A stretch of 63,931 bases of DNA, filler included, from Barthelona sp. PAP020 (Eukaryota): NCBI GenBank assembly GCA_040182905.1. It is 6 parts of 6 records of this genome, joined end to end, with 100 filler letters (N's around TTAATTAATTAA, not from the genome) between each part and the next. Parts side by side here need not be neighbours in the genome. Positions count along the whole stretch, not along the records: positions 22,636 to 33,819 come from JARQWU010000382.1; 5 more parts are not named here. One strand, given 5' to 3'. Made by a program: the position numbers and the translations under genes. The notes beneath the pieces are model-generated. The model did not search any database. It saw only the letters and a program-made list of their open reading frames with translations, and was not told the DNA's origin. Positions 3,927 through 56,387 of the stretch are shown here, one piece after another; the stretch's first letter is position 1, and the number at the start of each line of letters is the position of its first letter.

Positions 3927-4225
3927 TCAAGTTGGAATATTAGAAAAATAAAAATTTGGAAGAAAAAATACCAAAAAGCCAATTTTTCATTTATTTTTAA
4001 TAAATTCTATTATGTAATGGAGGGAAACTAAATATTTGTATTGTATAAGGAATTGAAAAAAAGAGGAAAGAGCACATTTTAGTTTTTTTTTAATAAAGAA
4101 TATTTGTTTGATAGTACTCTGAAATTTACTGTTTTAAATAAATTTTAGATATTTGTTTTTATCACCGTTGGAAACATTGACAAAACACGAAAAATGAGAT
4201 ATTGGTTTCATTTTTTTTTTCAAAA

Positions 4226-4594
4226 ATGATGTGGAATAGACCTGTAAATCCATTGGGAGGTGAAAATTGGTTTGATACATCAAAAATTGATGTGAACAGT
4301 TTAAGAGTAATTAGTCAAGCAGAATTGAAACAACATTCAACTGTAGAAAATGGTTTGTGGACTGTTGTTGGTAATATTGTTTTCGATGTAACCGAATACG
4401 CAAATAGACATAGGGGAGGAAAAAAATGCATTACTAGCAATGCGGGAGAGAATTGTTCAAGTTCTTTTTTTAAATTTCATGGATATATTAATCCTATTGT
4501 CGCCGTTGGTGTTGATAAAGTCGTCGGTAAAATTCAAGTTCACAATTTTGGAACTTCAATGGTTGATGATTTTCCTTTGTCAATTCCTGAATAA
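4226..4594 (+). CDS. Soluble cytochrome b5-like heme-binding protein
   Basis: ELKQH..LWTVVGNIVFDVTEYANRHRGG..AGENCS..F..FH; both axial His present; no TM tail; first ATG at 4226 (track starts at TTG 4202). Confidence 0.85.
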   Translation: MMWNRPVNPLGGENWFDTSKIDVNSLRVISQAELKQHSTVENGLWTVVGNIVFDVTEYANRHRGGKKCITSNAGENCSSSFFKFHGYINPIVAVGVDKVVGKIQVHNFGTSMVDDFPLSIPE

Positions 4595-4857
4595 TTATCT
4601 GATTTTTTAATCGAATTGGTGATATTGACGATATTTCAAAATGTGTAGTTCAATCAAGTTTTTTTTAGATAAACATTGCAATAATTAATTTCTTTTTGTG
4701 TTCTTTTTGTTATATTGTTGAAAGAAACAAATGTTACAGTTTTTTTGGGAACAAATACCTGATAATCTGTTTTGCTTTGACACCAAAAAAGATGAAATTT
4801 AAAGGAGAAACTGTAAGCACAATGTAATTTGTTCAAATGCTTGCCTTGTTTCATTGA

Positions 4858-7800: not shown

Positions 7801-8166
7801 AATGCATTGTTCTTGCCTTTTGGTCCTTTAATGGACTTATCTCAAGTTGGGGAACAATTGAACGAATATTTTGATCAAATTATTGATCAATCTTTTGAAT
7901 TTTTCATGTATCAATTTTCATTTTGTGGAATTAAAGAAGTAACTGTCTTTTCTAAAAGTCATCAAATAAGATTGATGAAAATGTCTGATGCTATGTTAAA
8001 GAGTGGATGGTTGAGTGCAATGCATGAAGTCTTGATTCTAAATAATACAGACAGTGAGAGAAGTAGTTTTCAGCAAAATCCTGTAATATTTGCAAATGTC
8101 ACAGCTAGTTCTTGTAGTCAACCCGTGGGTTATCCTGATTTAGTCATTCCCCTTATTGTTTCATAG
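4858..8166 (+). CDS. PCNX: Pecanex-like multi-pass membrane protein (paralogue 1)
   Basis: Many N-terminal TMs; RTACH..E motif; C-terminal ERSSFQQNPVIFANVTASSCSQPVGYP matches the Pecanex_C end; start uncertain (first ATG 4930). Confidence 0.8.
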   Translation: MKQVNLRHLFRKSLKVFFLGFLNQMLFIFALSLFGLIPIAIVALVFIIYMCSDELENEADEKYTFQMFDFMYFFFMEFDNDVFLFMTVFLHCLMIVFSFCAHVNTFLLVLYFILLLCMIIVYGIKEYFEEKYESLIMNFMNIPHLCLNFLVSCVCTIIGCYYTVLNIRLSDEKGYFIIFQFFIAYQLYFYLFRFFFFIQVNISDVSLNYSQLHVTKSIWFLFFNILHFFYPCFITTCLLAFSPYLWSIGILPNMYQLFYWFVDLVHIYLGGNHVCNLFTTCFELSIQCGLICLLKNKSFETFEEKFKTIFCYLSVSIFRLIPIHKNSWKIFKRYFTSSKFIYLLFFVCPILFVLFNDVFHSFTSFIQSYLRIGCVVICLLSLGFLFRRPNILMSFVQIFLDGEGETLETIFRHITKCICFPIIYLFFPILLIDSFFYDSNYMFLTSNVFTKFEIFETFKIADVAKYILLIMNFKLIYSRNTMNIIVFFMINIIESEFNMFSCHYMERFYFIHLFLYFVNRFVEIAQLMVYTEFSPTRFNLSPLSINFFRILVENFFIPAKIILSIFFNFHIYYVVQSGFGLTLSAPFPNRFFLSSQTIIDSTISNDISMLPEINFLHRMGKRVFNDYVSPFTTTGTVYLVINEDSSDYMVRYYDFGFGWCSFEGRVLNRKRTACHSGEIEADFFSGLYTPVQTIRHTKYPELQTLSYDVIPDSNMTIPNDFVCSLYNILIKEDEKVIESFENFVNYCLAKKETTFKQDEKGSELNIEDISASLSEHNDTIEESYQNENIEPIFDCSEATELDYDSLLYEGDLKLKTKEVKNEEEVEEVELIDFSEDMINNFFNVNVDDETNISNPNLLKMIRKLVYWFNFADKEAKCKKYFYWLSCFGVFCFNPTGCSFSTFKTLPKYILFKNPMIFMKDLKGYYHYFFKSLLVDYPHLSKYFFKATCLSLMANNTHVTCVYPEDCSFNELSEFLDSLKDFNALFLPFGPLMDLSQVGEQLNEYFDQIIDQSFEFFMYQFSFCGIKEVTVFSKSHQIRLMKMSDAMLKSGWLSAMHEVLILNNTDSERSSFQQNPVIFANVTASSCSQPVGYPDLVIPLIVS

Positions 8167-11245: not shown

Positions 11246-11345
11246 NNNNNNNNNNNNNNNNNNNNNNNNNNNNNNNNNNNNNNNNNNNNTTAATTAATTA
11301 ANNNNNNNNNNNNNNNNNNNNNNNNNNNNNNNNNNNNNNNNNNNN
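11246..11345. other. Artificial contig spacer
   Basis: N44-TTAATTAATTAA-N44 six-frame stop linker. Confidence 0.98.
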
Positions 11346-11347
11346 AT

Positions 11348-14300
11348 GGTGTTATTGATGTAGTTGAATTTGGAAATAATGTAGAAGATCTTACTGTTAC
11401 TTCTAGTGATAATACTGGTGAATTCAATATTTTAGGAACTGAATACAGTGGTGTATTTATGCCAAAGGGAGGTGTTGTCATTGACAATGCTGATTTCCAT
11501 CTCAAAACACTCATGGGATGGTATGAAGATGCGAATGTCACAATAAAGAGAAATGGTAAATTTATCATTCATTATAATGGTGAATTGACCGTAGGTTGTG
11601 GTGATTGTGGTATTTATACACTGCCTTCAAATGCAGACTTGGTTGAATATGCTGAAGTAGTTAATTATGGTTCGATCATTATTGTTGCTTCTGTTAGTTT
11701 CCCCATTTCTACAGGCATCAGTGGTAATGGTTCTTTCGCTATCAATGCTGGAGAACTTGAATTGAATCCTGTTGAAGATTTGAGTTTGAATGGTACCTGG
11801 ACTGTTGGGTATAGTGGTAGCTTGAATTTGGCTTCTGGTCAAACAACTTTCACTTCTGATGTTGTGTTCAATTCTAATGGTAATATTTACATCACTGGAG
11901 GTACCCATTATATCATGGATTACGTTAATTTGATTGCTGGTGAATTCTTAATAACGGGAGGTCAACTAGTAATTTATGACACAACACAAATTAATAACCC
12001 CAATGTACCTCTCACTATTAATTCTACAAACTGTCCTGTTGTACCAAGTAATTTCACTCAAGCTAATTTCACTGATAATGAATTGTGGGAAGATTGGTGT
12101 GAACCAAACGTCAGAATCGTTCAACTAGAAGATGTTGAACTAACAACATATGCAAATGTTTCTAATATTGTTTTACTTAATGGTACTTTGAAAGTTGAAA
12201 CAAATCTGTTGAATGATAAGTTTGAACTGAATAAAGATGGTATTTTATATATTCCAGCTTTGGATAGCAAAATCCTCAGTAATGGTGGATATTATGATCG
12301 TTTGGGTGGTAATTTTGTTGGCAAAGGTACTTTGATAATCCAACACGGTGAATGCTATCCCGATGAATGTGACTGTGATTATGGTTATGAAGGAATGGAT
12401 TGTAGTGCAGATTGTAGTGCATTTGACACTCAAGAAGATTGTGTTTCACGTTCTTTCTGTGGATGGTGTATGGATGACAATCAATGTGTTACTTCATTAT
12501 CCACTGGTGTACCGAAAGATGGAACTTGTGAAGAATTCTATTATGGTACCACCATTACTTGTGATACTGTTTACAAAATTTCTGAAATTATTGCAGATAG
12601 TTCATTGTTGCTTGAACCAAACGTTTCTTTCGCCTATGATAATGATTTGGAGATTTACACTTTTGATGTAGAAGCACAATATATTCGTGGTGGTTCATTA
12701 TACATTATTGACTTTGGTGCTTATAAAATCGACAGTAGAGATATTAGAAGTGTTCAAGTTTGTGAAAATCGTAATGCAACTCAAGCAAGTCAATTGGTCA
12801 GATCTCAACTCACTTCCACAGCACCTCATGCGAATCTTGATACTGCATTAAACAATACTCAATACCCTGCATATGGACCTACTAGTCCAAATTGGGTTAT
12901 TGGAAACAACACTTGTGGTGGTGTCATTTATACTGGTGAATTCTCATTAGGTGAATTGGCTAATTGTCAAGATTCCAGTTATGAGTCTCTTGTAAACTTC
13001 AAGGTTTACAACAACACACCTTTAGTTGATTATTACGGTGATTTGTATGTTTCATTGGTTAAGCCTTCTATTACTGAATCTGGCAAAGATACTTTAATTA
13101 AGGCTTGGAACAAACATTTCATTTCTCAATTCTCAGTTAACGTTCATGACATTTCTTATCAATCATGTGATTCTACTCTTACAATATGTGTTCCTTGTGA
13201 AGACGTACACGATTGTAAGTATCTTGTCATCTGGACTTTAGAAGATGTTCATCTACGTATTGATGATGAATTTGGGTATCCTGAATACGCTTTGTCAATT
13301 ACTTTGGCTTCAGAATCATTGTTGAACAAGATTCTTATCAGTGGTGAATTTGTTTCTTCAGACAGTGAAGGTGAATTCGAAGTCAGCGATTTACCTCCTG
13401 ATCCAGATGAAGCTTTCAGAAGTCAACGTTGGGAATTACACACATCAGATATTTCTTATGCTTCGGCCCCTCAAGGATATTATGGTGCCAATTATAAATT
13501 CTCATTTACACCTGGTGATTGTCAACCTGGAGTTTCTTCTGTTGATAATTGTCGTGCTGCTTCTCAACGTATTATTGTTGAATTTGGTGTTGATTTGGTT
13601 GAATTACCGACCTATGAAGTTGATAGTTTAAGTGATGCAAAACTTCTTTTCTTCGATGGTTCCATTCCTTCAGTGTATGAAAATGCTGAATCTTATCTTG
13701 GTCCTTATATTGCAAATGAAGTGATTCAAACAGCAGTATATGTCAATGTTGATGATTTCATTCAACATTTCCAAAAAGATGAAAAGATCACTCTTGAAGT
13801 GGTTAATGCTTGGGCTTGTATTGGTGAACAAGATAATCCACCAACTTATATTGAAGGTGATTCCAGCAATGTTGGTTGTAATATTACTGGTGGACAACTT
13901 ATTAAGGATGGAAAGATAATTCAATCCAAATTTATGGGCAACTATTTGGATGGTGTTAAGGAAACTTATACCTTCAGCAGTCTTGATGCTTCAAATACTG
14001 AATTAGTTCAAGCTTTCAGTTTGTTGGCTCCTTATTATGTTGATTCTAAGATGCTTTTTGTTCATGTCGAAATTCAAGTTGTTAAAGAACCTGCTGATGA
14101 TTCGGATCCTGTGATAATTGGAACAGAACATGTTATTAAATCTGTTTCTTTGAAGGGTCGTTCCATTCTTGAGACACCTGTGGTTCCAGCCACTGATTTT
14201 ACACCTTACATTATAGGAGGTGGTGCTGTATTATCAATTGTGATAATCACGGTCATTGTTATTGTGTTGAGACGTCGTCAAGCTGCTGCTGAATTAAAGA

Positions 14301-15793
14301 AGAAAAAAGAACAATCTCCTCATGATGATTGGGCTTTACCTGAAGATTTTGATATTCTTTCTATTTTCCAACATATCGATATCGAAAAACAATTAAAAGC
14401 ACTTGGTGGTACTGCTGAACACATTGAAGCTGTTAAATCAATGCTTGTCGGATCCACAACTGGAGATGTTGATGAATCTCAACTTGCAGTTCGAACAGAC
14501 AGTCAAGTAGATGAAAATGAGGACAGAGGACTCGATGAAAAAGAAGAAAATGCTGAAACATTGTTGGATGGTGGATTTGATCTTGGTAGTTTGGATTCAG
14601 ATTCAGAAGATTCTGATGGTCCTCTTCTTGTCGAATCGTCAAATAAAGAATCAACGGCTAATGAATTGCTTGACATGTTGAATGATTTTGGTACAGCAAA
14701 TGACATCAATATCGATTTGGAATCTGATAGTGAACCATCTGAAGATGAGGAAGTTCTTAATTTCTTGATGGAATCTCATGATCTTGTTGAACGTATCACT
14801 GTTGCGTACAATAATACTGAAGAGATTGAATTAACCACACAACAAACGGAAAGAGCGTCATTATTGTTATCCACGTTATTGCCTTCCTTGCTTAGACCTG
14901 GTGATATTGAGATATTTAGTAAAATCAAAGAAGCTGCCAATGAAGGTGCTAGCATTATCATAACGCCTGTTGAGTTGATCAATCTTCAAAAATATTTGCA
15001 TGTTGTGGAAGATGATGTTGTCACCACCAACATTGCAAAAGATCCTGTTGCAGCAAAATTATCCAATGGTTTGGCATTTTCAGCCAAGTCTGGAATGGAT
15101 TCAACTTCATTGACAATCACTGAAGGTGAATGTGCAATTCAAAATATTAACACCATTCCTCTTTGCAAATTGGTTCCTGATGAATTGGAAGTTGCATTGA
15201 AAATTGTTGATTCAGTCAATACTGGTAGATCTTTAACATTGAATAATGAAGATGCTTTAACAGTTGTTGAATTACTACACAAATCAAAAATGCCTCAATA
15301 TAAACCTTCTGATGAAGCTATCAAGCGTGTCGGCGCTGAACTTAAATCTGCTGCCAAATCAAGTCAAAAACATACTATTACTGCTGCTGAAGTTGAACGA
15401 ATTTCTATTTGTTTGACAAAGATACCCATCTTTGCTTTGAAACCTAAAGAAGCTGTTGCGGTAGCTGAATTGATTGGTCAACGTAAATTTGGTACCGCTA
15501 TAAACATTGTGCCTGGAAAAGCTTGGAAAATTGGTGAAGTCCTTTCCAATGCTGAAGAGTCTATAATGATGGCTCAAAAAAGATTGAAAAAGAAACCCGT
15601 TGAACAACAACAAAAATCCAATGTTAATCGTTCAAGGGTTCAGTCTCACTCAGAATCCAAGTCAACTTCACAGTCACCCCTTGCAAGATTGGCCGTCCAA
15701 CAGAGAAATAGTGAAGGTTTATCAAAATCTGAATCAAGAAAAAGACTGTATAATCCATTGGCTGCCAGCAAGAGTTTTATTAAAAAAGACTAA
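11348..15793 (+). CDS. Large type I membrane surface protein (beta-helix-like repeats, EGF-like, PSI-like, TM, long cytoplasmic tail), 5'-truncated
   Basis: Frame is open back to the contig edge; G/N-rich beta-strand repeats; HGECYPDECDCDYGYEGMDCS (EGF-like); C..CVSRSFCGWCMDDNQC (PSI-like); TM IIGGGAVLSIVIITVIVIVL followed by RRR. Confidence 0.8.
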   Translation, partial: GVIDVVEFGNNVEDLTVTSSDNTGEFNILGTEYSGVFMPKGGVVIDNADFHLKTLMGWYEDANVTIKRNGKFIIHYNGELTVGCGDCGIYTLPSNADLVEYAEVVNYGSIIIVASVSFPISTGISGNGSFAINAGELELNPVEDLSLNGTWTVGYSGSLNLASGQTTFTSDVVFNSNGNIYITGGTHYIMDYVNLIAGEFLITGGQLVIYDTTQINNPNVPLTINSTNCPVVPSNFTQANFTDNELWEDWCEPNVRIVQLEDVELTTYANVSNIVLLNGTLKVETNLLNDKFELNKDGILYIPALDSKILSNGGYYDRLGGNFVGKGTLIIQHGECYPDECDCDYGYEGMDCSADCSAFDTQEDCVSRSFCGWCMDDNQCVTSLSTGVPKDGTCEEFYYGTTITCDTVYKISEIIADSSLLLEPNVSFAYDNDLEIYTFDVEAQYIRGGSLYIIDFGAYKIDSRDIRSVQVCENRNATQASQLVRSQLTSTAPHANLDTALNNTQYPAYGPTSPNWVIGNNTCGGVIYTGEFSLGELANCQDSSYESLVNFKVYNNTPLVDYYGDLYVSLVKPSITESGKDTLIKAWNKHFISQFSVNVHDISYQSCDSTLTICVPCEDVHDCKYLVIWTLEDVHLRIDDEFGYPEYALSITLASESLLNKILISGEFVSSDSEGEFEVSDLPPDPDEAFRSQRWELHTSDISYASAPQGYYGANYKFSFTPGDCQPGVSSVDNCRAASQRIIVEFGVDLVELPTYEVDSLSDAKLLFFDGSIPSVYENAESYLGPYIANEVIQTAVYVNVDDFIQHFQKDEKITLEVVNAWACIGEQDNPPTYIEGDSSNVGCNITGGQLIKDGKIIQSKFMGNYLDGVKETYTFSSLDASNTELVQAFSLLAPYYVDSKMLFVHVEIQVVKEPADDSDPVIIGTEHVIKSVSLKGRSILETPVVPATDFTPYIIGGGAVLSIVIITVIVIVLRRRQAAAELKKKKEQSPHDDWALPEDFDILSIFQHIDIEKQLKALGGTAEHIEAVKSMLVGSTTGDVDESQLAVRTDSQVDENEDRGLDEKEENAETLLDGGFDLGSLDSDSEDSDGPLLVESSNKESTANELLDMLNDFGTANDINIDLESDSEPSEDEEVLNFLMESHDLVERITVAYNNTEEIELTTQQTERASLLLSTLLPSLLRPGDIEIFSKIKEAANEGASIIITPVELINLQKYLHVVEDDVVTTNIAKDPVAAKLSNGLAFSAKSGMDSTSLTITEGECAIQNINTIPLCKLVPDELEVALKIVDSVNTGRSLTLNNEDALTVVELLHKSKMPQYKPSDEAIKRVGAELKSAAKSSQKHTITAAEVERISICLTKIPIFALKPKEAVAVAELIGQRKFGTAINIVPGKAWKIGEVLSNAEESIMMAQKRLKKKPVEQQQKSNVNRSRVQSHSESKSTSQSPLARLAVQQRNSEGLSKSESRKRLYNPLAASKSFIKKD

Positions 15794-22535: not shown

Positions 22536-22635
22536 NNNNNNNNNNNNNNNNNNNNNNNNNNNNNNNNNNNNNNNNNNNNTTAATTAATTAANNNNNNNNN
22601 NNNNNNNNNNNNNNNNNNNNNNNNNNNNNNNNNNN
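22536..22635. other. Artificial contig spacer
   Basis: N44-TTAATTAATTAA-N44. Confidence 0.98.
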
Positions 22636-22637
22636 TT

Positions 22638-24092
22638 GATCATATTGAAGCATATGTTGATAATTCCATTGGAGAGCATTCTACACAGAATTTTGATTTG
22701 GAGCTGTATAAACTAGGTGTTAAACATATTTCTAAAGAATTCAAGGCATGGATTTCAAATGGAACCCTTGGTTTACGTGTTGCTCCTGGTGATTTCTTTT
22801 TATTTCATGCAGTGAAACAATCGTATTTGGTTCAAGTATTAGAACGTGGATTAAATCACTGGAGTATTCAGATAAGGGTTGCAGAAGCTGTGGGCACAAC
22901 TTGTCAACAAAGAGAATTAGGTGGATTGGAAACTGTAATTGCCTTACAGAACAAAAGAGCTTTATCCTTCTCAACTTTAATGGAAACAGGTTTAACATGC
23001 GCTAGTCTTTTGCGTGTTGATGTACCACTTCCTACATATTCAGTTTCTCGTTTCATAATTAATCAAACGTTTTTCCTTGATTACACGTCACATGGTGACT
23101 TTTTGATTAATCTCTTGCTTAGCATGATTTTCATTCAATTAACACCAACTGGATGGAAGCTATTACAAAAGCATGATAGCTTCCCATTGGTACCTAAGTT
23201 CTTGAACAAGTTAGATTCGTTTTATGATCGTTTCAAATTGCCTCCAGAAGGTCAAGTGATTATTAGCAGTTGTTTGAATGGTGTTTGTGGATCTAATAAT
23301 GATTGTGTTGATATTTCGATAATAAATAAGGAATATGGTGCATTTTTGGAATTAGTTCAAAAGGCTGCCTTAAATTCCGATACAACGCCTCTTGTTGAAG
23401 TTGATGAGTGTCTTCCTTATGCTTTGACTGCATTTACTTCCGTGTTAGAAGTGTTCATTCATTTGATTTCTCAAAGAATTGTCAGCAGTCCAGCCCAATC
23501 GAACGATGCTGAATTTGGTGTTCAAATTGGAAAAATACTTCTTGGTGACCTGTCAGGTCTTGAAAATTATGGAACTTTCTTCAAAGCTGAAGCATTTCAA
23601 TCTTTTTTATTGGTGGCAGTTCGTTTGGCATTTACTGTTCATATGAATATGAGCATTTGTTTTGTTCATCCTGGTGAGCTTCCAGAGAGCGATTTTGAAA
23701 TATTTGAAGAAGCTTGCAATGACATGATCCTTCCTGAAACAAATAAATTGTTTTTGAAGAATTTCGAAGAAAAAGCAGAATCAATTAATGCTGTCAGAGA
23801 GGGTACTTATGATGAAGGTAAAAAGCCTATACTCCTGCAATATGGTTTTGATCAACCGAAATTTTCTATCTTTAGGTTGAATGGTAGTGCTGTTCGTTCT
23901 CAATGGGCATTATCCTTGATGGATGTTATTTATTTTCAGAACGAAATGGATGAAAGGGAGAGCATTCAAATGAATTTTCCAACTATGAGGAATTTCTGTA
24001 GTTTAACTTCAGATCCTCCAGTCGGTTATCCTGCTTATATATCTCCAATCATTTTTTCTTCAAATAAAGATGGTGACAAAGAAAAAAAATAA
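22638..24092 (+). CDS. PCNX: Pecanex-like protein C-terminal half (paralogue 2), 5'-truncated
   Basis: GTTCQQRE; AVRSQWA..VIYFQNEMDERESIQ...MRNFCSLTSDPPVGYPAYISPI matches Pecanex_C; frame open to contig edge. Confidence 0.88.
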   Translation, partial: DHIEAYVDNSIGEHSTQNFDLELYKLGVKHISKEFKAWISNGTLGLRVAPGDFFLFHAVKQSYLVQVLERGLNHWSIQIRVAEAVGTTCQQRELGGLETVIALQNKRALSFSTLMETGLTCASLLRVDVPLPTYSVSRFIINQTFFLDYTSHGDFLINLLLSMIFIQLTPTGWKLLQKHDSFPLVPKFLNKLDSFYDRFKLPPEGQVIISSCLNGVCGSNNDCVDISIINKEYGAFLELVQKAALNSDTTPLVEVDECLPYALTAFTSVLEVFIHLISQRIVSSPAQSNDAEFGVQIGKILLGDLSGLENYGTFFKAEAFQSFLLVAVRLAFTVHMNMSICFVHPGELPESDFEIFEEACNDMILPETNKLFLKNFEEKAESINAVREGTYDEGKKPILLQYGFDQPKFSIFRLNGSAVRSQWALSLMDVIYFQNEMDERESIQMNFPTMRNFCSLTSDPPVGYPAYISPIIFSSNKDGDKEKK

Positions 24093-24934
24093 AAATAATC
24101 AAAATAAAAAAAATTAAAAAAAATTTTTTTTTATTCAAATGTTGATTTCATGGTTTCGTTTCGGGTTTAGTGTGTAATAGATGGGAAAGAACAACTATAT
24201 TATAAATTGGTTTGATAAAACGCAAAAATTTGTTTTTTATTAGATACTTATTAGATATTTATGAGGTATGAGTTGTTCAGTGAACAACGAAACGAGTTAG
24301 CTTAAGGTTTGGGAAAAAAATCACGTAGATTCAGATGCCCAAGTAACTTAAAGAATTGGACCTTAAGGTGGTCAAGAAACAACAAATAGTGGAAGTGATA
24401 TTTGATGTCCTTTTTATATCTCCAATAAATTCCGTTCATTGAGCATGAGCTTCCACATTATTTCCAAGCCAAAAAGGATTGTGGGTATGAGTGAACAGAG
24501 ATGAATGGTTTCACAATATTTTGGTCCAGTTGTGAAACAACATTGTCTATTTACATAGGGAGTAAACTCAGAAAACTTTGGAAAAATTCTTCATTCCAAT
24601 TATTTTTTATTCAGGAAAAACAAAATGTTAAACTGTACCTTAGAAAATCTAAGGTTTTTCAACAGATCAATGGGGCCTCGAAAGCCTTTAACCAAATAAA
24701 CACTATTCTGTTTTATTCACTCGTACTCACAGTGCTTCTTGGCTTGGAAATACTGAGTAAAAATAACTTTACATATTGTAGGTCAATCAATAAAAATTTG
24801 TTTAGTTCTACCTTTAAAATAGGATTATCTTTTGATCAAAATTAATTCGAAACAATGAAAAAAAAACTTTAATATTTACAATCAACTTTTTGCAAAATTT
24901 TGGAAATTTCTTCAAAAATCAAGAATAACTATGT

Positions 24935-27769
24935 TTATGTTATTGAATAAGCATCTGTTGCCCAAGTTAAAGCTCTGAACCAATAACCATATTCTATTTG
25001 ATTCTTTGCACAAAGATAGAGTTTATTTGTAACTTCACCTTTTTCATAATGTCCATCTCTTTTGGTAATTGTATCATAAAAAACAACAGACATGCAAAAC
25101 GGTTTGATATCTTCAGGAACAATTTCACAACTTGTCAATGAAAAAGTACCATTTGGATGAGGAACTTCATCATCAAAGAAGTACATTAAAGTAGCATCAT
25201 GCAAAACAAAATATCTTGTGTGCCAATAAGATTTTGTGAAATCAGTTTTTTTTGCTAAAAATCCAACCATTGTTGTCAAAGAATAATCAAAAATCTTTTG
25301 TACATCTAAAGAAGGCTGAAATAATACCGTTGCTTCAGGGGTTATGCTTTCTGCTGAAATTTCATTCATTTTCAAATCGTTTATCATTTCATTCCATTTT
25401 GAAGCAACATGTGTTTTCGCAAAAATCAACCTCTTTATTCTAGTAGGAGTATGAATGACCATTTCTGATCCTTCTAATGAGATGGAACAACCAACTAAAA
25501 CAATTCTAAATTCACAAAACAAATCCAAAGGACTTTCAAAAAAATATATGCAGTTAGATGCTAAAATAGCATACCTTTGACGAGAAAATATTCCAGGAAG
25601 CGTTATCCAAGTCTGTAGATCAACACAGAGCATTGAAATAATAGGAATGATTTGATTGTCATATTTTAAATTGTTAACAATAGGTCTACGAGAAGAAGAA
25701 AACATTTCACGATTTTCTTTTAAAGTTAGAACGAGATCTGCCTTATCCTCTTCTAATTCAAACAATTGTAAGGCTTGTTCTTCCATTTTAACTAATAATT
25801 CATCAACTTTTTCTTTGTATAAATCTAATTCACTTTGTAATTGCTCAATCTCACAACGTTGACTTTTAATAACATCATTTTCATTTGTTAAATTTGATTC
25901 AGTGCTGCTGGAATTAATGTGTGAGGATGAAATTTTTAATTCTGAAATGATGTTCTTGTAATGTTGTTCTTGTCTGGACCTTTCTCTTTCAGATTCACTT
26001 AAACGTTGTCTCAATAAATCAATCTCAGCACTCGCAGAATCCGAAATTTCATCATTTATGACAGAAGCTATTAACGGTGAATCAAATAAAGAAGCATTGT
26101 TTATTAAAAAATCGGCCAATCGTTCGGTATCGAATTCACCAAAATGACCATCCAAAGATTCTTCTAAAACTGATAAAACTGATGGTACTCTGCTTAAAGT
26201 TAGAGACTTCCGGAGAAAATTCGATTCTTTGTTCAAAAAATTAGAATTGTTGTTATCCAATTTAATCTCATTTTCATCACTTAAAACTTGCAAATAAACT
26301 TCATTTTCTAATTCTGGAGTTTCAGTTTCTGGAGTTTCAATCGATTCTGAAATCTCTGAAGTTTCTGAAGTTTCTGAATATTCAATAGTTATATCATCTG
26401 TCTCGATGCCAATTGTATCAAGAAAATTGGTTTGATCTCTCAACTTTGATTTTCTATCGTTAGGATCACAATTCAAAACCTCATTTTTATTCATCATTTT
26501 CTTCTTTTCTTCCTCAAAGTCATTATCATCTTCATAATTTATCTCAATATCCAGTGGAATACTCTCAACTGTAGTTTGAATCATATCGTTCCTTTCTTCA
26601 TTTTTATGGACTTGAGATTGAATTGCGTCAGGATTTGTTTCAAACATCGAAAGCCTTTCCTTTAATCTTGCATTATCTTCTTTTAGCTGTTTAACAAGTC
26701 TTTTTAATTCATCATAAGATAATTGAGCATTAACTTTAACTATATTTGAAATGCAGGCAGCTTGTTCAGCAAATCGTAAAGTAGATATTGTCTCATTCAA
26801 GTGTATGGAATGTGGGGAACAAGTGGCCAACAGAACGGATCTACAGTTACCACCAAAACTTTCTCTTAAAATGAACGTCAATTTACTGTCCCGAAATGGA
26901 ATATAGCTCATTTTGTTTGCAGCTAAAAGATGAATAACATGTCCCAATGTACTTAACGATAGATTAATTTTCTTTGCTTCTTTCAGTGTTTGTCCAGTGA
27001 CACCAGTCTTTTTGATCTTCTCAGAACCACACAAGTCCGCCAAATTGAACTTAGCATGTAAGTTTGAACCAGAAGATAAACTTCGAGTGATGTGTAAGGT
27101 AAATAAACAATGAGATCGTGAAGATGAACGATTTAAATTGGTTTCAGCAACAGATCTATTCTCCAAAGCAACATCCAATTGCTTCATGATATCTTGATGC
27201 GACCCCACTTCAAGATGCGTCAACCCTTCAACATAAACCCCTTTTTTTGGATGTTCTCTTACTCTTAGTTTTCTGCGATTCTTAAAATTCAATAAATCAA
27301 ACAACTCTTCACAATATATTTCTACACAAGAAAGTAAAACAGAAAAACTCACATTTTTATCCTTTAGTTTCTGTTCATTAATATATTGAAATAAACTTTC
27401 ACAACAACGTGGGGTTAAGCCTCGTAAATCTCCTTGTTCTCCAAAAACACTGTAAGACTTTCCAGATCCCGATTGTCCGTAAGCAAAAATTGTACTATTC
27501 AAACCTTTAGTAATACCTTGAATTAAAGGTGCTCCTAATCTTTCAAAAATTTCTTCTTGAGTCGTATCAACATTAAAAATATGATTCAATCTACACTTGA
27601 ATGCTAAACTATCTCTATGCATTAATTTTAGATGAGAATTATCATCACAAATATCTAATTTCAGACTATTCGGCATGTTTTCAAAAGTGGTGGGACCACT
27701 GTTCATATTTTCATTTGAAGTTAATAATGGTCGAAATCTACATGCGACATATACTTTTGTTTCAGACAT
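24935..27769 (-). CDS. N-terminal-motor kinesin with coiled coil and two C-terminal PH domains
   Basis: GQSGSGKS P-loop, NRSSSRSH switch I, DLCGSE switch II, IPFRDSKLT; PH-like QRYAILASNCIYFF..W and GFLAKK..WHTRYFVL..LMYF..WFRAL. Confidence 0.92.
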   Translation of the reverse strand: MSETKVYVACRFRPLLTSNENMNSGPTTFENMPNSLKLDICDDNSHLKLMHRDSLAFKCRLNHIFNVDTTQEEIFERLGAPLIQGITKGLNSTIFAYGQSGSGKSYSVFGEQGDLRGLTPRCCESLFQYINEQKLKDKNVSFSVLLSCVEIYCEELFDLLNFKNRRKLRVREHPKKGVYVEGLTHLEVGSHQDIMKQLDVALENRSVAETNLNRSSSRSHCLFTLHITRSLSSGSNLHAKFNLADLCGSEKIKKTGVTGQTLKEAKKINLSLSTLGHVIHLLAANKMSYIPFRDSKLTFILRESFGGNCRSVLLATCSPHSIHLNETISTLRFAEQAACISNIVKVNAQLSYDELKRLVKQLKEDNARLKERLSMFETNPDAIQSQVHKNEERNDMIQTTVESIPLDIEINYEDDNDFEEEKKKMMNKNEVLNCDPNDRKSKLRDQTNFLDTIGIETDDITIEYSETSETSEISESIETPETETPELENEVYLQVLSDENEIKLDNNNSNFLNKESNFLRKSLTLSRVPSVLSVLEESLDGHFGEFDTERLADFLINNASLFDSPLIASVINDEISDSASAEIDLLRQRLSESERERSRQEQHYKNIISELKISSSHINSSSTESNLTNENDVIKSQRCEIEQLQSELDLYKEKVDELLVKMEEQALQLFELEEDKADLVLTLKENREMFSSSRRPIVNNLKYDNQIIPIISMLCVDLQTWITLPGIFSRQRYAILASNCIYFFESPLDLFCEFRIVLVGCSISLEGSEMVIHTPTRIKRLIFAKTHVASKWNEMINDLKMNEISAESITPEATVLFQPSLDVQKIFDYSLTTMVGFLAKKTDFTKSYWHTRYFVLHDATLMYFFDDEVPHPNGTFSLTSCEIVPEDIKPFCMSVVFYDTITKRDGHYEKGEVTNKLYLCAKNQIEYGYWFRALTWATDAYSIT

Positions 27770-27955
27770 CCATATAATCTAAAACAATCAAAACTAATTA
27801 ATAAAAAATAAATCTTTTTATTCACTCTTTTAGTTAAAAAAATTTTTTATAATCTGAATTTATGTCATTAAACAAAAATTAAAACAACTAATTAAAAAAA
27901 AACAAAAATAAAAAATTCTACTCACACATTTTCCAACACTCAATTTTATGAAAAT

Positions 27956-28915
27956 TCATAAATGATCAGTTTTATGACTCGTTGACAAATCGTATGCGAT
28001 TCTATAAATTAAAATTTGCTTTTCATTGCAAATTCCACACGCTAGAAATTTATTGTCGGGTGAAATACAAAAATATGAGAATTCATCGGAGCAACCACAA
28101 TAAAATCTTTGAATTTCATCATAATTATAGGTATTAAAAATGTTAAAATACCCATCTCCAACCATTGAAATTAATACATCAGAGCAACAAAATTGAAATG
28201 TGCTCACTGGATTGTTAAAGGTAAAAGTGTGGACCAAATCACCATTTTCAACATCCCATACTTTAATAGTGCTTGTGTCATCGCTTGCTAAAATCACATT
28301 TTTTGTGGGATGAAAAGCAATAGATTTCAAACAATAACCATCACCAAAAGACCTGACGATGGAAAAATCTTCACTGTTTATTAAATTTGCCAAACAATCA
28401 TCACTGCATGTTAAAATGAATTTCCCATCGTTTGAAAGCACCAATGAATGAATCCATTCCATATGAACTTTCTTTCTCAAATCAACACAATCGCTTTCAA
28501 GATTCCATCTATTTAAATATCCATTTTCATCAACAACATATAAAAATCTTGAACAGGTTGAAAATACGATAGAAGTAATTTCAGCAGAATTTGGAAAGCT
28601 TTTGATAAGTTTAAGATCTTTCCAACGGTAAATTTCAATAAGTCCATTATTTGAACATATAGACAACAAACTTCCATCAAATGAAAAACAAATATCATTG
28701 TAGAAAGATTCATGCTTTCCCAAATACTGACATGTTTCAGTAATAACATCAAAAATACATATAGCACCTGTTTGAAAAACAATAACAAGATGTTGACCAT
28801 CATTTGAAAATTTACAACACCTAATATCGTTATCTGGTTTACATTCAATAATTTTAACACAACTTTGTATGATTTCGAAGGATTTTGTTTCAGTATACTT
28901 TGATTCGGTGGTCAT
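27956..28915 (-). CDS. WD40-repeat protein
   Basis: Repeated FSxDG, IFD, VWD, RWN WD40 motifs. Confidence 0.85.
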   Translation of the reverse strand: MTTESKYTETKSFEIIQSCVKIIECKPDNDIRCCKFSNDGQHLVIVFQTGAICIFDVITETCQYLGKHESFYNDICFSFDGSLLSICSNNGLIEIYRWKDLKLIKSFPNSAEITSIVFSTCSRFLYVVDENGYLNRWNLESDCVDLRKKVHMEWIHSLVLSNDGKFILTCSDDCLANLINSEDFSIVRSFGDGYCLKSIAFHPTKNVILASDDTSTIKVWDVENGDLVHTFTFNNPVSTFQFCCSDVLISMVGDGYFNIFNTYNYDEIQRFYCGCSDEFSYFCISPDNKFLACGICNEKQILIYRIAYDLSTSHKTDHL

Positions 28916-29000
28916 ATTTTTAAAAGTTTAAAAGATACAAGGAAAACTTTCTATCTTACATTAAAAAAAAAAAAAAATAAGAACCTTTGTTGGCTGCCTT

Positions 29001-31361
29001 TTATCTACAAGATAGCAATTGATATCGAATGGAAGAATTGCTAATTAATTTATTAATATCTCTTTTTTCAAAAAGACTATCGATTTTTTGTTTGCAAAAA
29101 ACTTCATAACTCCAAGCAGGAAAATTCAACTTGACTTTTTTATCAGAATCAGATAATATGTAAACAGTTTTATCAATCTTATCAATCTTTATCTTAACAT
29201 TAGTTAAAGAAATGGGAACAGGAGGATTCCCACAAAATCCATGAATGTCTACCAATTGATCATTTGTTGGAAGAATGTATTTCCTGGTAAGACGTTGAAA
29301 AATCGAATATTGATATATTGAAAAACAATTGTTTGGTAAATGTGTCAAAGTCAGTTTGTCAAATTTTTCCAAAATCAAAGATTCATTGACAAAAGCAGTT
29401 TGTGAACAACAAATAATAAAACTGCAAATCAACAACAAAAAAGTTAAAATAAAAAAAGGTACACAATACAATTTTGAATCTAAAAAAGTGGAATCATTAC
29501 TTTGAAGGAGAATGTTTGAAATGGAAATGGACGAATCGTCTTGAGTTCCATGATACAATACAATGTTTGTGTCAAAAGAAAACTTTTCCCCCAAGTAACA
29601 TTCTAAAAGCAGAGGACTAGTGCTAATTACATAATAACATGACAAGTTTGTTTGTGAATTGAAGTTTGATTGAATACTCAAAGTAAAAGTGTCTTCAATG
29701 AAATTATTTAAATAAATAGGTGTGGATATTAGACTAAAATGGACTTTTTGAAGGTCATTAATGTAACATGTGGTGCTTACTGTGATAAACCCATTGAAAA
29801 CTTCAGTGTCTTCTGCATTTTCTGCTTGATTACACGTAATATTATTGAAAATACTGAAAGAGTTTTCTGATTGATCACACACTGTTGAATCAATAATGAA
29901 TTCAAAGGATGGATTCAATGGATTGTTACAAGGGTCAATTAATTTGCCATAATAAGAAGTAAATTCTACCTTTATCTCAACATTTTCCAATTCAAAAAAT
30001 GTCGCCAATAGTGGTTGAAATGAACATGTGAAATTGTTCATGATCTCTTCAATAGTGTTTATTTCTAATGTTATTGTTAATAAATTAGCCCCAACAACCA
30101 AATTAAATTCTTCAGTTGAAACAACTTCATCAAAATCATCAAAGATAACAATTTGCAAAGAAAAATCCATGTTTTGAACAGTCAATTCAATCATCAAATT
30201 AACAAACCCAATGCTTGACTCAATTAGAGTGTAATTCTCATATGAAAAAATTGGTTTTAATAATTTAACCTTATTTGAAGGTACAAATACTTCCAAATTA
30301 TATTTTATTGGTAAAAACAACATTGACTTATCCGTATTTTCATAATAATATTGAAAGGCGTTGACATACGCTAAATCTTCATTCATTGAAAGAAAAGCCG
30401 ACAATTTATTTTCCAAACAAGAATCCCTCAATTTCATACACCTTTCATCTTGCCCAAAAAATGATATTAAAGAGGGTTGTAATTGATTACACTCATGGCC
30501 AATGATTGAATCCTTCACAGGCACAAAAGAGCCATTGAAGTTGTCTAAAAAGGATCCTGAAGTTATCGTTTCGTAATAAAATGATGTGGACAAATCAATA
30601 TCAACATGAGTCTGGTCAAAAATAATTTCACCATCATCTGCCAATACAATTGAACCATTCCAAAAAAAGCTAACAGGTATGTTATCTTCAAGTGTATATA
30701 AAGTCCTGTTATAAGGATATTCTGGTGTTAATGTGTGGTAACTATTTGTAAACGGAATGCTTCTAGTTGAAGAACAATGAAAAGAAACATGAGATCGATC
30801 AGCAAAACTCCATTGTGTTGCAGTAGAAGACAAAGTGGGATCATATTCATATTGCAAAAGATTACCAGAAGAATCTAAAGTTAAAAAACCAAAATACTCA
30901 TTTTTCTCTTCAATTTCTGAACGATTCAAAGGAAAACGAATTTCATACGAAGAATCACCAATAAAATTAAAGTTGTCTTCTGTTACAGAAATAAAGATAT
31001 TGTCAATTTCATTTTTATCAATCCTCCAAAAATTGTCTTGCAAAAATTGTTCTTCTTTAACAATTTCGTTCACTTCAAAAATAAGTTCGGAAGATTTAAT
31101 ATTGTATCCAATATTGGAATAATCTGTCATAACGTTTATGAACGTTTCTGTTTCTAATTCATAAATAAGCGAATCTATTATGATACAATCAAAAGATTCT
31201 ATTTTTTGGGTTTTACATTGTACATCAACAAAAAATTTTATCCTCAATTCATCTATTTCATCATTTTGAATAATTTCTCCATATAAACATTCTCTTGTTT
31301 CAACATAAATATAATAATAAATAACATTAAGACATAAATATAAAAATATTTTTTTGATCAT
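29001..31361 (-). CDS. HAP2: Divergent HAP2/GCS1 (fusexin) gamete-fusion protein
   Basis: Signal peptide; early Cys pair; SFHC motif; GHECNQLQPSLISFFGQDERCMKLRDSCLENKL resembles the HAP2 GxECNKIGVxYxAFxxQxxxCxxxxxSCLxNQL signature; Ig-like beta region; TM with juxtamembrane Cys. Confidence 0.7.
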   Translation of the reverse strand: MIKKIFLYLCLNVIYYYIYVETRECLYGEIIQNDEIDELRIKFFVDVQCKTQKIESFDCIIIDSLIYELETETFINVMTDYSNIGYNIKSSELIFEVNEIVKEEQFLQDNFWRIDKNEIDNIFISVTEDNFNFIGDSSYEIRFPLNRSEIEEKNEYFGFLTLDSSGNLLQYEYDPTLSSTATQWSFADRSHVSFHCSSTRSIPFTNSYHTLTPEYPYNRTLYTLEDNIPVSFFWNGSIVLADDGEIIFDQTHVDIDLSTSFYYETITSGSFLDNFNGSFVPVKDSIIGHECNQLQPSLISFFGQDERCMKLRDSCLENKLSAFLSMNEDLAYVNAFQYYYENTDKSMLFLPIKYNLEVFVPSNKVKLLKPIFSYENYTLIESSIGFVNLMIELTVQNMDFSLQIVIFDDFDEVVSTEEFNLVVGANLLTITLEINTIEEIMNNFTCSFQPLLATFFELENVEIKVEFTSYYGKLIDPCNNPLNPSFEFIIDSTVCDQSENSFSIFNNITCNQAENAEDTEVFNGFITVSTTCYINDLQKVHFSLISTPIYLNNFIEDTFTLSIQSNFNSQTNLSCYYVISTSPLLLECYLGEKFSFDTNIVLYHGTQDDSSISISNILLQSNDSTFLDSKLYCVPFFILTFLLLICSFIICCSQTAFVNESLILEKFDKLTLTHLPNNCFSIYQYSIFQRLTRKYILPTNDQLVDIHGFCGNPPVPISLTNVKIKIDKIDKTVYILSDSDKKVKLNFPAWSYEVFCKQKIDSLFEKRDINKLISNSSIRYQLLSCR

Positions 31362-31619
31362 TGATCACACCACATTTAAAAAAAATTGTTGAATTTCTTT
31401 ATTATTATTTTAAAAATGTCTGTAAAAGAGCGGTTAAAATTAGGATTGAAATGAAAAAGAAAGTAAAAAAACAACATCAAATCACTCGTGATTTGACGCC
31501 ATCAACTGTAAACTAATGTTCAAAATTGAATTCAATTGATTAATAACTATTCTTTTTAAAAACTGAATAACTGAATTAATTGATTTATTTGAATATTTAC
31601 GAAAAAAAAAATACTGATA

Positions 31620-32543
31620 ATGACCTTGCCTCATCAAAGAAGAGATTTCACTCAAACATCTCAAATGGAAAACAATTTAACCAATAATTATCAACAACAA
31701 CAACAACAACAACACGAAGAAATAGGACAACCCAATATCGTCAAACCCATTCCAGAAAATTTTCCCACAACATTAACTTCTAAAATTGTGGAATTAAGTT
31801 CAACAATTAATTATAATAACAACCCAAATGAACAATTCGCTCAATTTATTGATGACATGAATGTTCAATATCAAACAATGGGAAAGACAAGCGCATGGGA
31901 AATAGGAACTGAATTTAATCAATACATGATTGATTTCAACAGATATTTAACTGCAGCAGATCAGGTAATCGATGACATAGCAAAGAGAATCCATTCAACG
32001 TCATTGCAAAAAAAAATCAATAAACATCCAAAAGAAGTGTTCGAAAGATTAAACCCATGGTTTTTGCAACATTTAGACAGTCCTTATGTGAATTCAAAAT
32101 CTGCCAAACAACTTGGAAAGGAATTAGGTTTGACCAAACATCAAATATACACTTGGTTCACCAATAGAAGAACAAGATTCAAAAAAAACTATTATAAAGG
32201 AAATGAACATATTCCGATGGGTTGTCCTACACCATGGTTTTTAACTTCTCATGGAAACAATAATACAAACAGCAATTATAACAGTATGTCAAATGAAAAT
32301 AAAATTCCAGATTCCCCTCAACAAATGTTCAGCAATGGAAATCACAGCAACCAAAACCATGTTTTAACACTAAATTTGAACGAGACAAATGATAGCGTTA
32401 ATTCAACATATCAAAATCAACTTGGCTCATTTGCATTTTCAGACAATCAATGTTTTGGTTCAAATGGCGAAATTTCACCAATTCAAAGAATGGAAGTTTT
32501 TAGTCCTGTTAGCTCAGTAAGTTCAAATGGATTGTTCCTTTAA
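31620..32543 (+). CDS. TALE-class homeodomain transcription factor
   Basis: LNPWFLQHLDSPYV (three-residue loop extension) ..GLTKHQIYTWFTNRRTR; upstream EFNQYMIDF resembles KNOX2/MEINOX ELDQFM; poly-Q at 31692-31712; start may be ATG 31665. Confidence 0.9.
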   Translation: MTLPHQRRDFTQTSQMENNLTNNYQQQQQQQHEEIGQPNIVKPIPENFPTTLTSKIVELSSTINYNNNPNEQFAQFIDDMNVQYQTMGKTSAWEIGTEFNQYMIDFNRYLTAADQVIDDIAKRIHSTSLQKKINKHPKEVFERLNPWFLQHLDSPYVNSKSAKQLGKELGLTKHQIYTWFTNRRTRFKKNYYKGNEHIPMGCPTPWFLTSHGNNNTNSNYNSMSNENKIPDSPQQMFSNGNHSNQNHVLTLNLNETNDSVNSTYQNQLGSFAFSDNQCFGSNGEISPIQRMEVFSPVSSVSSNGLFL

Positions 32544-32821
32544 TTGCCATTATAACATTGATAGTCAAATTTTAAAAAATTATGAAGTTTCAGAATGCCA
32601 ATAATTTTGTAAATAAATACATGTACATTTTTTTAAAAAAACAAAAAGGCAGTTATTGAAAGATAATTACATTGTTAAAAAAATTCATTTCTTCTTTCCT
32701 CTTGAAAATATGACATTTTTCACTGATTAAAATATTATTTAATATTACTGATAAAACATATTTGAAGATAAAATTCGCATACTGTTAACTTCAACTTAAT
32801 TGCCATCAAATCAACTTTAAA

Positions 32822-32903
32822 AATAATACTGAATACAACTGAATAATAACTGAATAACTTGATAAATAACTGATTTAATAACTGAATTAATAACTGAATT
32901 AAT
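32822..32903. repeat. Degenerate tandem repeat of ~10-12 nt (AATAACTGAATT)
   Basis: ACTGA recurs at 32828, 32838, 32849, 32869, 32881, 32893. Confidence 0.8.
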
Positions 32904-33516
32904 AAACAAATAAATAATTACATTAAAACAGAAGAATCTTCTTTGCAAGAAAACAAGAAAAATATTTTTCTTCTTTAAATGCTGATACACTCAACTGAAA
33001 AACATATTTTTGTCATATTAAACATAAATACATATATGAAACTGTTAAATATTGAGGAATAGAATGAGTGAAATATCTTATGAATGAATGCAAGGTCGAG
33101 CACGCAAATATATCAAATAAATTTGAAATATTTGAAAAATAATAACAATTATAACAATAATCGTTATTATAAAAAACAAGAACAAAATTATTTTGTAATT
33201 GAATACAAAAAGATTTTTCTTGAACCAAAATAACAGTTAGAGTATTATCAAATTACTTACATATTTTTTAAAATTGTCAATATTAATAAAAGAATGTGAA
33301 TATGAAATAACAATTGAATTAAAGCTTTAAAAAATGGCACCAATAGAAAACGAAAAAAGTTCCATCAAAAAAAAAATCAACATTTTTTCAATTTTCAAAT
33401 TCTTTCAATCATTAGAAGTCCATGCTGAAATCAAAAAATGAATTGTTTTCAATTATATTTCCAGGAGAAACAATAAATACCGAACAAAAATAATCACATA
33501 CATTTATTTAAAAAAA

Positions 33517-33819
33517 TCAATCCACTCTTTCATAAAGATATATGTATCCCTTATTAAATTGAGGATTTGGAGCAATTGCAACTTTTCTATCATTGAAAAG
33601 GATCCATTTTTCCTCTCCATCAATTTCTTTCAAAAGATGACAAATATAATGGCCTGTGTAGGCTGTAGCACCTTTATGTGTGATCATACCCTTAAGTCTG
33701 TACTTTTTCGAACAATTTTTAGTTTCTTCCAACCTTTGTTCAAAATTGACGGGTAGTTCACTTGGATCAGGCATTTGTGGAATGATGTCACCAGACAAAA
33801 GTAAATTTAAAGCACTGTC
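33517..33819 (-). CDS. Ubiquitin C-terminal hydrolase (USP5/Ubp14-like), C-terminal fragment
   Basis: YRLKGMITHKGATAYTGHYICH..WILFNDRKV..GYIYLYERV His-box; 5' cut by spacer. Confidence 0.85.
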   Translation of the reverse strand, partial: DSALNLLLSGDIIPQMPDPSELPVNFEQRLEETKNCSKKYRLKGMITHKGATAYTGHYICHLLKEIDGEEKWILFNDRKVAIAPNPQFNKGYIYLYERVD

Positions 33820-33919
33820 NNNNNNNNNNNNNNNNNNNNNNNNNNNNNNNNNNNNNNNNNNNNTTAATTAATTAANNNNNNNNNNNNNNNNNNNNNNNNN
33901 NNNNNNNNNNNNNNNNNNN
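33820..33919. other. Artificial contig spacer
   Basis: N44-TTAATTAATTAA-N44. Confidence 0.98.
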
Positions 33920-45056: not shown

Positions 45057-45156
45057 NNNNNNNNNNNNNNNNNNNNNNNNNNNNNNNNNNNNNNNNNNNN
45101 TTAATTAATTAANNNNNNNNNNNNNNNNNNNNNNNNNNNNNNNNNNNNNNNNNNNN
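45057..45156. other. Artificial contig spacer
   Basis: N44-TTAATTAATTAA-N44. Confidence 0.98.
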
Positions 45157-55787: not shown

Positions 55788-56287
55788 ATGAATCCTTCCA
55801 ATATGGTACGATAATTATTTGATTTATTACTAACTGAAAAGGTCCGTGAATTTGTTGTCGCTGGTAGAGCTTTGCCAACCGAAAACGACGCAAATCCCGT
55901 TATTTACAAAATGAGCATTTATGCTGCCAACCCAGTTGTTGCTCGTTCTCGTTTTTGGAACACTTTAAAGAAATCTCAAAAGATTAAAAAGTGCAATGCC
56001 CAAATTATTGAATGCACAGAAATTTTTGAAAAGAATACCAAGGCTTGTAAGTCTTTTGCTGTTTATATTCGTTATCGTGTTCGTCATGGATTTATTAATA
56101 TGCGTAAGGAATATCGTGCCACTTCTCGTTGTGAAGCTGTCTCTCAAATGTTCCAAGAAATGGCCGGTCTTCATCGTGCCAGACCCGAAGTTATTCAAAT
56201 CCTCAATGTCGAACGTTTGTTAAAGAAGGAAGATGTTAACAGAACTCAAGTTTCTGCCTTCATGAACCCTTCTATTAGCTTCCCTGC
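55788..56287 (+). CDS. RPL18A: 60S ribosomal protein L18a (eL20); 36-nt intron 55806-55841; 3'-truncated
   Basis: Spliced (MNPSN)M|VREFVVAGRALPT..VARSRFW..NMRKEYR..EMAGLHRAR; start is ATG 55788 or 55803. Confidence 0.95.
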
Positions 56288-56387
56288 NNNNNNNNNNNNN
56301 NNNNNNNNNNNNNNNNNNNNNNNNNNNNNNNTTAATTAATTAANNNNNNNNNNNNNNNNNNNNNNNNNNNNNNNNNNNNNNNNNNNN
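56288..56387. other. Artificial contig spacer
   Basis: N44-TTAATTAATTAA-N44. Confidence 0.98.

Follow-up and report, generated by a model that had tools for sequence, protein, structure and literature searches.

Does the head-to-head gene pair of the protist Barthelona sp. PAP020, in which a gene for a HAP2-like protein faces a TALE homeobox gene, belong to the sexual machinery of this organism? Few components of eukaryotic sex are known to be as old as HAP2 and heterodimerising TALE proteins, and a preliminary description of the pair had proposed it as a candidate mating-type locus. The pair is located at positions 29001-32543 of a 63,931-nucleotide (nt) stretch of genome assembly GCA_040182905.1, hereafter referred to as the window. 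Our analysis revealed that the gene pair is real and uncommon. One partner is a TALE homeobox gene, while the 786-amino-acid (aa) product of the other is a motif-only, heavily diverged HAP2 relative, not a canonical family member or a recognisable fusogen. That the two genes constitute a co-regulated sex cassette is, in our judgement, evenly balanced; a true mating-type locus, which is included in the cassette reading, is rather unlikely.

The pair is organized as follows:

22636-33819: contig with the gene pair, a single assembled, linker-free piece of 11,184 base pairs (bp)
29001-31361, minus strand: HAP2-like open reading frame (ORF), 786 aa
30369-30509, minus strand: HAP2 signature, comprising ij loop and start of helix alpha2 (residues 285-331, with C291, F301, Q304, C308 and C315)
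31362-31619: divergent spacer of 258 bp, putatively a shared promoter
31620-32543, plus strand: TALE homeobox gene, 307 aa
32010-32189, plus strand: homeodomain (residues 131-190)

Both ORFs are in head-to-head orientation with an ATG-to-ATG spacing of 258 bp. Divergent transcription on one contig, from ATGs at 31361 (minus strand) and 31620 (plus strand), had been reported in the preliminary description; these coordinates are exact.

The TALE homeobox identity is likewise upheld. The 307-aa protein passes the Homeobox_KN family PF05920 (E 6.7e-9; 35.9 bits against a cut-off of 24) as well as the Homeodomain family. In the sequence search of PDB, the alignment to PBX1/Exd spans 64-67 residues without a gap and includes the three-residue loop extension between helices 1 and 2. 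The best structure matches are PBX1/Extradenticle (E about 1e-10, best 9e-11), followed by Meis (8e-7) and yeast alpha2 (7e-6). A TALE homeodomain is thus shared with PBX/Exd-like proteins, which are the closest solved structures, with Chlamydomonas GSM1/GSP1 and with sex-linked TALEs of Bostrychia. Helix 3 reads WFTNRR and, as counted from the sequence, threonine occupies homeodomain positions 47, 50 and 54, which set DNA specificity (PMC6219170). In the aligned PBX structures, in contrast, position 50 is glycine. The PBC/PBX class is marked by a PBC or PBL domain and the WFGN helix-3 motif (PMC6219170); the protein carries WFTN instead. Pfam retrieved no PBC match at E<=10 for residues 61-137 and 68-130 (the PBL profile of PMC6219170 was not run), and no KNOX, ELK, Meis or BELL match in the 60-77 residues preceding the homeodomain (HMMER filters drop weak matches, and the KN-A/KN-B profiles of that paper were not run). 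Homologue search with the TALE region returned only the query itself among 22 candidates, and no related locus was detected in viral contigs searched with the TALE protein. The first TALE codons (31622-31654) have a 33-nt, 73% inverted copy at 33065-33097, about 520 bp past the TALE stop codon, which may be due to chance.

Identity of the opposite gene is less straightforward. It had been described as HAP2-like, and this holds for the ij-loop motif only; a full-length family match and six of the seven tip cysteines are missing. Pfam scan of the full-length 786-aa protein yields no family at E<=1. When the signature region is excised, it matches PF10699 with E 3e-5 and 23.2 bits (21.7 bits with another excision), which is below the gathering cut-off of 27.4. 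The signature (about 45 residues) keeps the C-x9-F-x2-Q-x3-C-x6-C-L spacing. The only match to the whole protein among 177,635 PDB sequences (E<=10) is 5ow4, over residues 285-326 with E 0.19, improving to E 0.0045 for the excised region; 5ow4 is named as TcHAP2, HAP2 of Trypanosoma cruzi (PMC9259645).

To compare the protein with a broader set of HAP2s, a profile of 26 sequences was assembled from 18 in-frame ORFs of at least 521 aa, obtained from 120 loci fetched by a HAP2 motif pattern, and 8 of 10 further proteins. The 786-aa query scores 13.6 bits against this profile, while the best of 1000 shuffles and the reversed sequence reaches 7.6; for the ij segment the score is 18.9 bits, and none of 300 shuffles exceeds 3.4. 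In hhalign comparison with 18 HAP2s, the protein has E 2.2e-4, whereas both control proteins from the window have E 0.54 and 0.73. Moreover, the motif is found at the canonical position, namely at residues 286-331 in the query and 291-334 in the profile. MAFFT alignment of residues 21-472 is colinear with HAP2 through strand H0, ij loop, helix alpha2, strand I0 and domain III, with a deletion of about 25 residues after helix alpha2; identity to 33 HAP2 rows is 13-19%. Since MAFFT with a longer query placed domain III differently, domain boundaries are to be taken as best guess. On the basis of these sequence comparisons, the 786-aa protein is very probably derived from HAP2.

Two further candidates were rejected in the course of this analysis. 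A second echo of the ij motif at about residues 484-508 is not significant (E 0.18). Hidden introns as cause of the missing cysteines were discarded, as no stop interrupts the frame and only two places in the window show a branch-site pattern of RPL18a type, neither of them within the pair. The RPL18a intron itself (55806-55841, plus strand) is 36 nt long, and has a yeast-like TACTAAC branch site near the 3' AG; no other clear intron was seen in the window.

Outside the signature, the protein contains these elements, all encoded on the minus strand:

31296-31361: signal-peptide-like N-terminus (residues 1-22), recognized by eye and below the 1.5 hydropathy cut-off over 19 residues
29949-30275: predicted immunoglobulin (Ig)-like domain III (residues about 363-471), in which G385 and C446 align with invariant HAP2 columns; taken from a model guided by HAP2 alignment and thus partly circular
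29547-29945: extra module with six cysteines between domain III and membrane (residues 473-605), with no family match
29397-29474: single transmembrane helix (residues about 630-655) with hydropathy peak of 2.79 and cysteines 633, 646, 651 and 652

The transmembrane helix is the sole hydrophobic segment and is followed by a tail of about 130 aa. The protein therefore has the type I topology of HAP2, with the signal peptide judged by eye. It is acidic, with 107 Asp and Glu residues versus 51 Lys and Arg. The predicted architecture corresponds to that of class II fusexins, i.e. domains I-II, Ig-like domain III, extra module, transmembrane helix and tail. A possible origin of the extra module by duplication of domain III was dismissed, as 243 of 1000 shuffles scored equally well, although one MAFFT run put HAP2 domain III there. 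Foldseek with the HAP2-guided model retrieved HAP2 first (7s0k with E 4.5e-4 and 5ow3 with E 6.6e-4, TM-scores 0.26 and 0.17), and VIA-align recognized an Ig fold at model residues 343-451, where domain III of Plasmodium HAP2 gives Z 8.6 and root-mean-square deviation of 2.5 over 95 aligned residues. Since the model is circular, these matches count as compatibility only.

Canonical HAP2/GCS1 proteins (PF10699; 5ow4, 5ow3, 6e18, 7s0k) share with the 786-aa protein the three cysteines, Phe and Gln of the ij loop, the predicted Ig-like domain III and a single transmembrane helix with nearby cysteines. On the contrary, the protein differs from them by loss of six of seven tip cysteines, an off-register Arg, the deletion mentioned above and the extra module of 130 residues. 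The b-d-c tip of HAP2 has nine invariant residues, seven cysteines, a strand-b Glu and a cd-loop Arg; the Arg forms a salt bridge with the Glu and is essential in Arabidopsis and not in Tetrahymena (PMC6089408). The ij loop forms the frame beneath the fusion loops (PMC5332557), so it is the frame that is retained here. The one tip cysteine kept, C196, is the sole cysteine between C59 and C291 and aligns in MAFFT with the strand-d His-Cys column of HAP2. C196 and C308 are presumably the two partners of the lost Cys-Cys pair and could bond to each other.

Lost tip disulfides do not exclude a role in fusion, because the archaeal fusexin Fsx1 keeps only one conserved disulfide in domain II and still fuses cells (Moi et al. 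2022, PMC9259645). According to the same source, Fsx1 has a fourth domain. Features common to both proteins are the paucity of disulfides in domain II, an additional domain past domain III and a strongly acidic character (charge of -67 for the Fsx1 ectodomain, -56 for the whole 786-aa protein). They differ in that Fsx1 has three transmembrane helices, while the protein described here has one and a long tail and is found in eukaryotic nuclear context. Fsx1 is absent among the matches listed in PDB sequence and fold searches, by which kinship is not excluded.

A close parallel to the gene pair is found in Dictyostelium. HgrB of this organism resembles HAP2 in the motif only, yet fusion depends on it; a weak HAP2 motif is likewise present in MatD and MatT of the mating locus (PMC4910948), and all three were proposed to be partners of a fusogen. 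As in the 786-aa protein, HgrB has a signal peptide, a central HAP2 motif, one transmembrane helix near the C-terminus, motif-limited similarity and lineage-restricted occurrence (PMC4910948). HgrB differs by position of the motif, which is at 496-556, whereas residues 285-331 of our protein correspond to the location in canonical HAP2 (283-331 in HgrA), and HgrB operates beside canonical HgrA. MatA and MatB are homeodomain-like and control the haploid-to-diploid switch (PMC5580921); MatB shares the type II mat locus with MatD (PMC4910948, PMC5580921). The D. discoideum mat locus, in the available descriptions, therefore resembles the Barthelona pair in that a homeodomain-type regulator is found beside a gene with weak HAP2 motif and conserved cysteines. 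In contrast to the fold-only look-alike of D. discoideum, the regulator is here a recognisable TALE homeodomain; the comparison is one of descriptions, and no idiomorphs are known here. The motif-only qualifier thus weakens the fusogen claim, but it matches the layout of the Dictyostelium mating locus.

Further precedents have been reported. In Cyanidioschyzon merolae, a candidate mating-type region sits between HAP2 and a receptor gene (PMC13353863). As in the present case, the interval is short and immediately precedes both a HAP2 gene and a second gene; unlike here, the partner is LRR/GFR/TNFR receptor-like, HAP2 is canonical and two allelic forms track the mating type. In Bostrychia, each sex region contains one TALE gene (10.1101/2025.02.11.637652). 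Upregulation of HAP2 and both TALE genes in a haploid strain has also been reported (PMC13213038).

If the pair is a sex cassette, the spacer would switch on both genes in mating-competent cells. The HAP2 relative would reach the cell surface and contribute to gamete fusion; it would be a divergent fusogen itself or the partner of one, the latter as proposed for HgrB, MatD and MatT. The TALE protein, expressed from the same promoter, would enter the zygote, pair with the homeoprotein of the other gamete and start the diploid programme. In its strictest form, which we consider unlikely, this would be a two-gene mating-type locus in a flagellate without described sex, consisting of a bona fide TALE gene and a fusexin with a fourth domain and without canonical tip disulfides, both transcribed from a single bidirectional promoter that has a homeodomain-dimer site at its centre.

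The spacer and its surroundings contain several repeats that are relevant in this respect:

31477-31496: perfect inverted repeat located about mid-spacer, its 9-bp arms, both TGATTTGA, separated by 2 nt
31501-31580, plus strand: upstream copy of a degenerate, AT-rich direct repeat of about 80 bp (74% over 88 columns)
32810-32891, plus strand: downstream copy of the same repeat, within a short tandem array (32828-32917)

The two ATGs are at distances of 115 and 123 bp from the inverted repeat. The arms of this repeat are close to TALE binding cores, and it might serve as homeodomain-dimer site, which is offered as a lead only. Copies of the 80-bp repeat are present on both sides of the TALE gene. 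RNA folding of the spacer is ordinary (z 0.2).

Several observations weigh against a sex cassette. Those concerning the pairing speak for chance neighbours, i.e. for a divergent HAP2 relative and a TALE gene that are adjacent in a compact genome and separately regulated, an explanation which we hold to be somewhat doubtful. The spacing of 258 bp, put forward in the preliminary description as notably short, is in the middle of the range: 30 linker-free junctions include six divergent pairs, separated by 58, 78, 258, 299, 545 and 552 bp. Short spacing therefore adds no evidence for the cassette. Perfect non-overlapping inverted arms of at least 9 bp occur in 3 of 26 intergenic regions, and the 9-mer TGATTTGAY is not enriched across the window (6 seen versus 7.0 expected). 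GC content at third codon positions of the pair (0.218 and 0.224) lies within that of 36 window ORFs (0.156-0.277), as does codon bias of both genes. The other four genes of the contig are unrelated to the pair and include no known sex gene; nor were large repeats detected on this contig, though a two-gene locus need not show repeats, a composition shift or low gene density as signs of suppressed recombination. No KNOX, PBC or BELL partner domain was detected in the TALE protein. Finally, the 120 other HAP2 loci (544,270 bp, 33 of them at least 5 kb and many redundant) contain no homeobox detectable by tblastn or by a helix-3 pattern which did recover the TALE gene of the window, and Pfam detected none in 51 of 122 listed ORFs, derived from 9 of 15 HAP2 loci (two bacterial). 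Since these loci are short, redundant and not from relatives, they show only that linkage of HAP2 with a homeobox is not general.

Against chance neighbours stands the rarity of such pairing, which follows from the small number of TALE genes per genome. By our own estimate, a TALE gene and a HAP2 relative become a divergent pair by chance in 1 of 2,000 to 1 of 50,000 genomes, when 5,000-15,000 genes are assumed, 1-9 TALE genes are taken from the red-algal range and one third of upstream neighbours are divergent, as at window junctions. In addition, the sources cited above place genes with HAP2 motif, and likewise homeodomain genes, at loci for mating or sex. Four of five window copies of TAACTGAAT flank the TALE gene, where 1.5 would be expected, with the reservation that the motif was picked post hoc and that the DNA is of low complexity. 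The literature search, which did not extend to most subscription journals, found no report of direct linkage between HAP2 and a recognisable TALE gene; the available portions of PMC8777248, PMC8516963 and PMC6369745 contain nothing on such linkage.

The remaining points against the cassette concern the 786-aa protein itself. Apart from the failure of the full-length scan and the score below the Pfam cut-off, the ij segment alone beat shuffles among 10 profile segments, and parts before and after the motif are not significant in hhalign (E 0.5 and 0.18). One of seven invariant tip cysteines is kept; E92 aligns with the strand-b Glu column, and the sole loop Arg, R189, is about 10 residues off register, in a region where the alignment is not significant. 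The single-sequence structure model has a predicted local distance difference test score (pLDDT) of 30. Guidance by 33 HAP2 rows raised the mean to 47, with 60-83 in domain III and 54-72 at the motif, which is weak and circular, and the match to Plasmodium HAP2 domain III is tied with many unrelated Ig folds. Of 7,997 candidates that were scored, none was a homologue at E<=1, and a search of 1.84 billion representatives gave none at E<=0.001; 105 pattern matches in metagenome loci included no confirmed relative, and a search of viral contigs with the HAP2 motif returned no related locus. Two non-sexual readings of the protein are conceivable: an ectodomain of HAP2 descent now serving as an ordinary protein of the cell surface or of adhesion, or a membrane protein with Ig domain that is unrelated to HAP2 and resembles it over 45 residues by coincidence. 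Both are nevertheless unlikely, given that the motif spacing is kept at the expected distance from the N-terminus of a type I membrane protein, that HAP2 is the first pick of three independent libraries, that the ORF is intact across 786 codons in DNA of 29% GC, and that motif-only HgrB is still needed for fusion (PMC4910948).

The linked pair offers a small target, accessible to polymerase chain reaction, by which one may test an unstudied protist for mating types and ask whether the design of the Dictyostelium locus is ancestral. If it is indeed a two-gene mating-type locus, it would be a second, independent layout of homeodomain gene plus HAP2 relative after Dictyostelium mat and would suggest an ancestral eukaryotic mating locus. 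The case of the 786-aa protein also illustrates that HAP2 relatives can fall below standard detection. Not only does it fail the full-length Pfam scan, but its exact sequence is absent from the eukaryote protein collection which contains proteins of both neighbouring genes; all seven shorter forms starting at downstream ATGs are absent from this collection as well. Hence, calls of HAP2 absence in divergent lineages may be false negatives.

Among the HAP2 loci collected for comparison, several HAP2/GCS1-family genes occur in bacterial context. They are situated at 146-1726, 1737-3335 and 3359-4975 (minus strand) of locus L123, 649-2193 (plus strand) of L121, 7356-9023 (minus strand) of L015 and 3321-4988 (minus strand) of L017. 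Three tandem copies on one contig of a Geobacterales metagenome-assembled genome and one copy in that of a Desulfobacteria member match PF10699 with E 3e-58 to 5e-67, and the L015 gene with E 7e-78. The proteins are 514-556 aa long, have a signal-like start, end just past domain III with no visible transmembrane helix and lack some tip cysteines. A BTAD/TPR regulator adjoins the L015 and L123 genes, and genes with bacterial Ig repeats adjoin those of L015 and L017. No paper on bacterial HAP2/GCS1-family genes was found by its title (titles only were searched), and bacterial assignments of fsx1 are mentioned only cautiously in the available text of PMC9259645. Judged from their sequences, these genes possibly represent a secreted bacterial fusexin family.

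The contig with the gene pair further encodes:

22980-24092, plus strand: Pecanex_C gene, a short, soluble-looking form
24935-27769, minus strand: kinesin with C-terminal PH domain, two genes from the HAP2-like gene
27956-28915, minus strand: WD40 gene
33517-33774, minus strand: C-terminal end of ubiquitin hydrolase

The window as a whole consists of six contig pieces of about 11.2 kb each, joined by five artificial linkers of the form N44-TTAATTAATTAA-N44, across which gene order is meaningless:

11246-11345, 22536-22635, 33820-33919, 45057-45156 and 56288-56387: artificial linkers

ORFs at 8975, 45101 and 55911 extend into these linkers. The DNA has about 29% GC and is gene-dense (about one gene per 1.8 kb) and intron-poor. 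TMEM17 and CIMIP2B-like genes are present in the window and, as members of known ciliary families, likely point to a flagellated cell. Ribosomal protein eL20 is at about the same distance from plant, fungal and other entries. Rfam and tRNA scans gave nothing relevant.

Other contigs of the window contain a second gene with Pecanex_C domain (4930-8166, plus strand), coding for many hydrophobic segments, and a gene at 11459-15793 (plus strand) for a 1444-aa membrane protein with a weak PSI repeat and a cysteine-rich stretch, possibly a receptor or adhesin. On the contig with the gene pair, the intergenic region between Pecanex_C and kinesin genes includes a hairpin (24451-24760) with 59-nt arms, folding energy of -98.1 kcal/mol and z of -7.4 relative to 100 shuffles. 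It has no match in Rfam and may represent a small element with inverted repeats or else a structured RNA not yet recognised.

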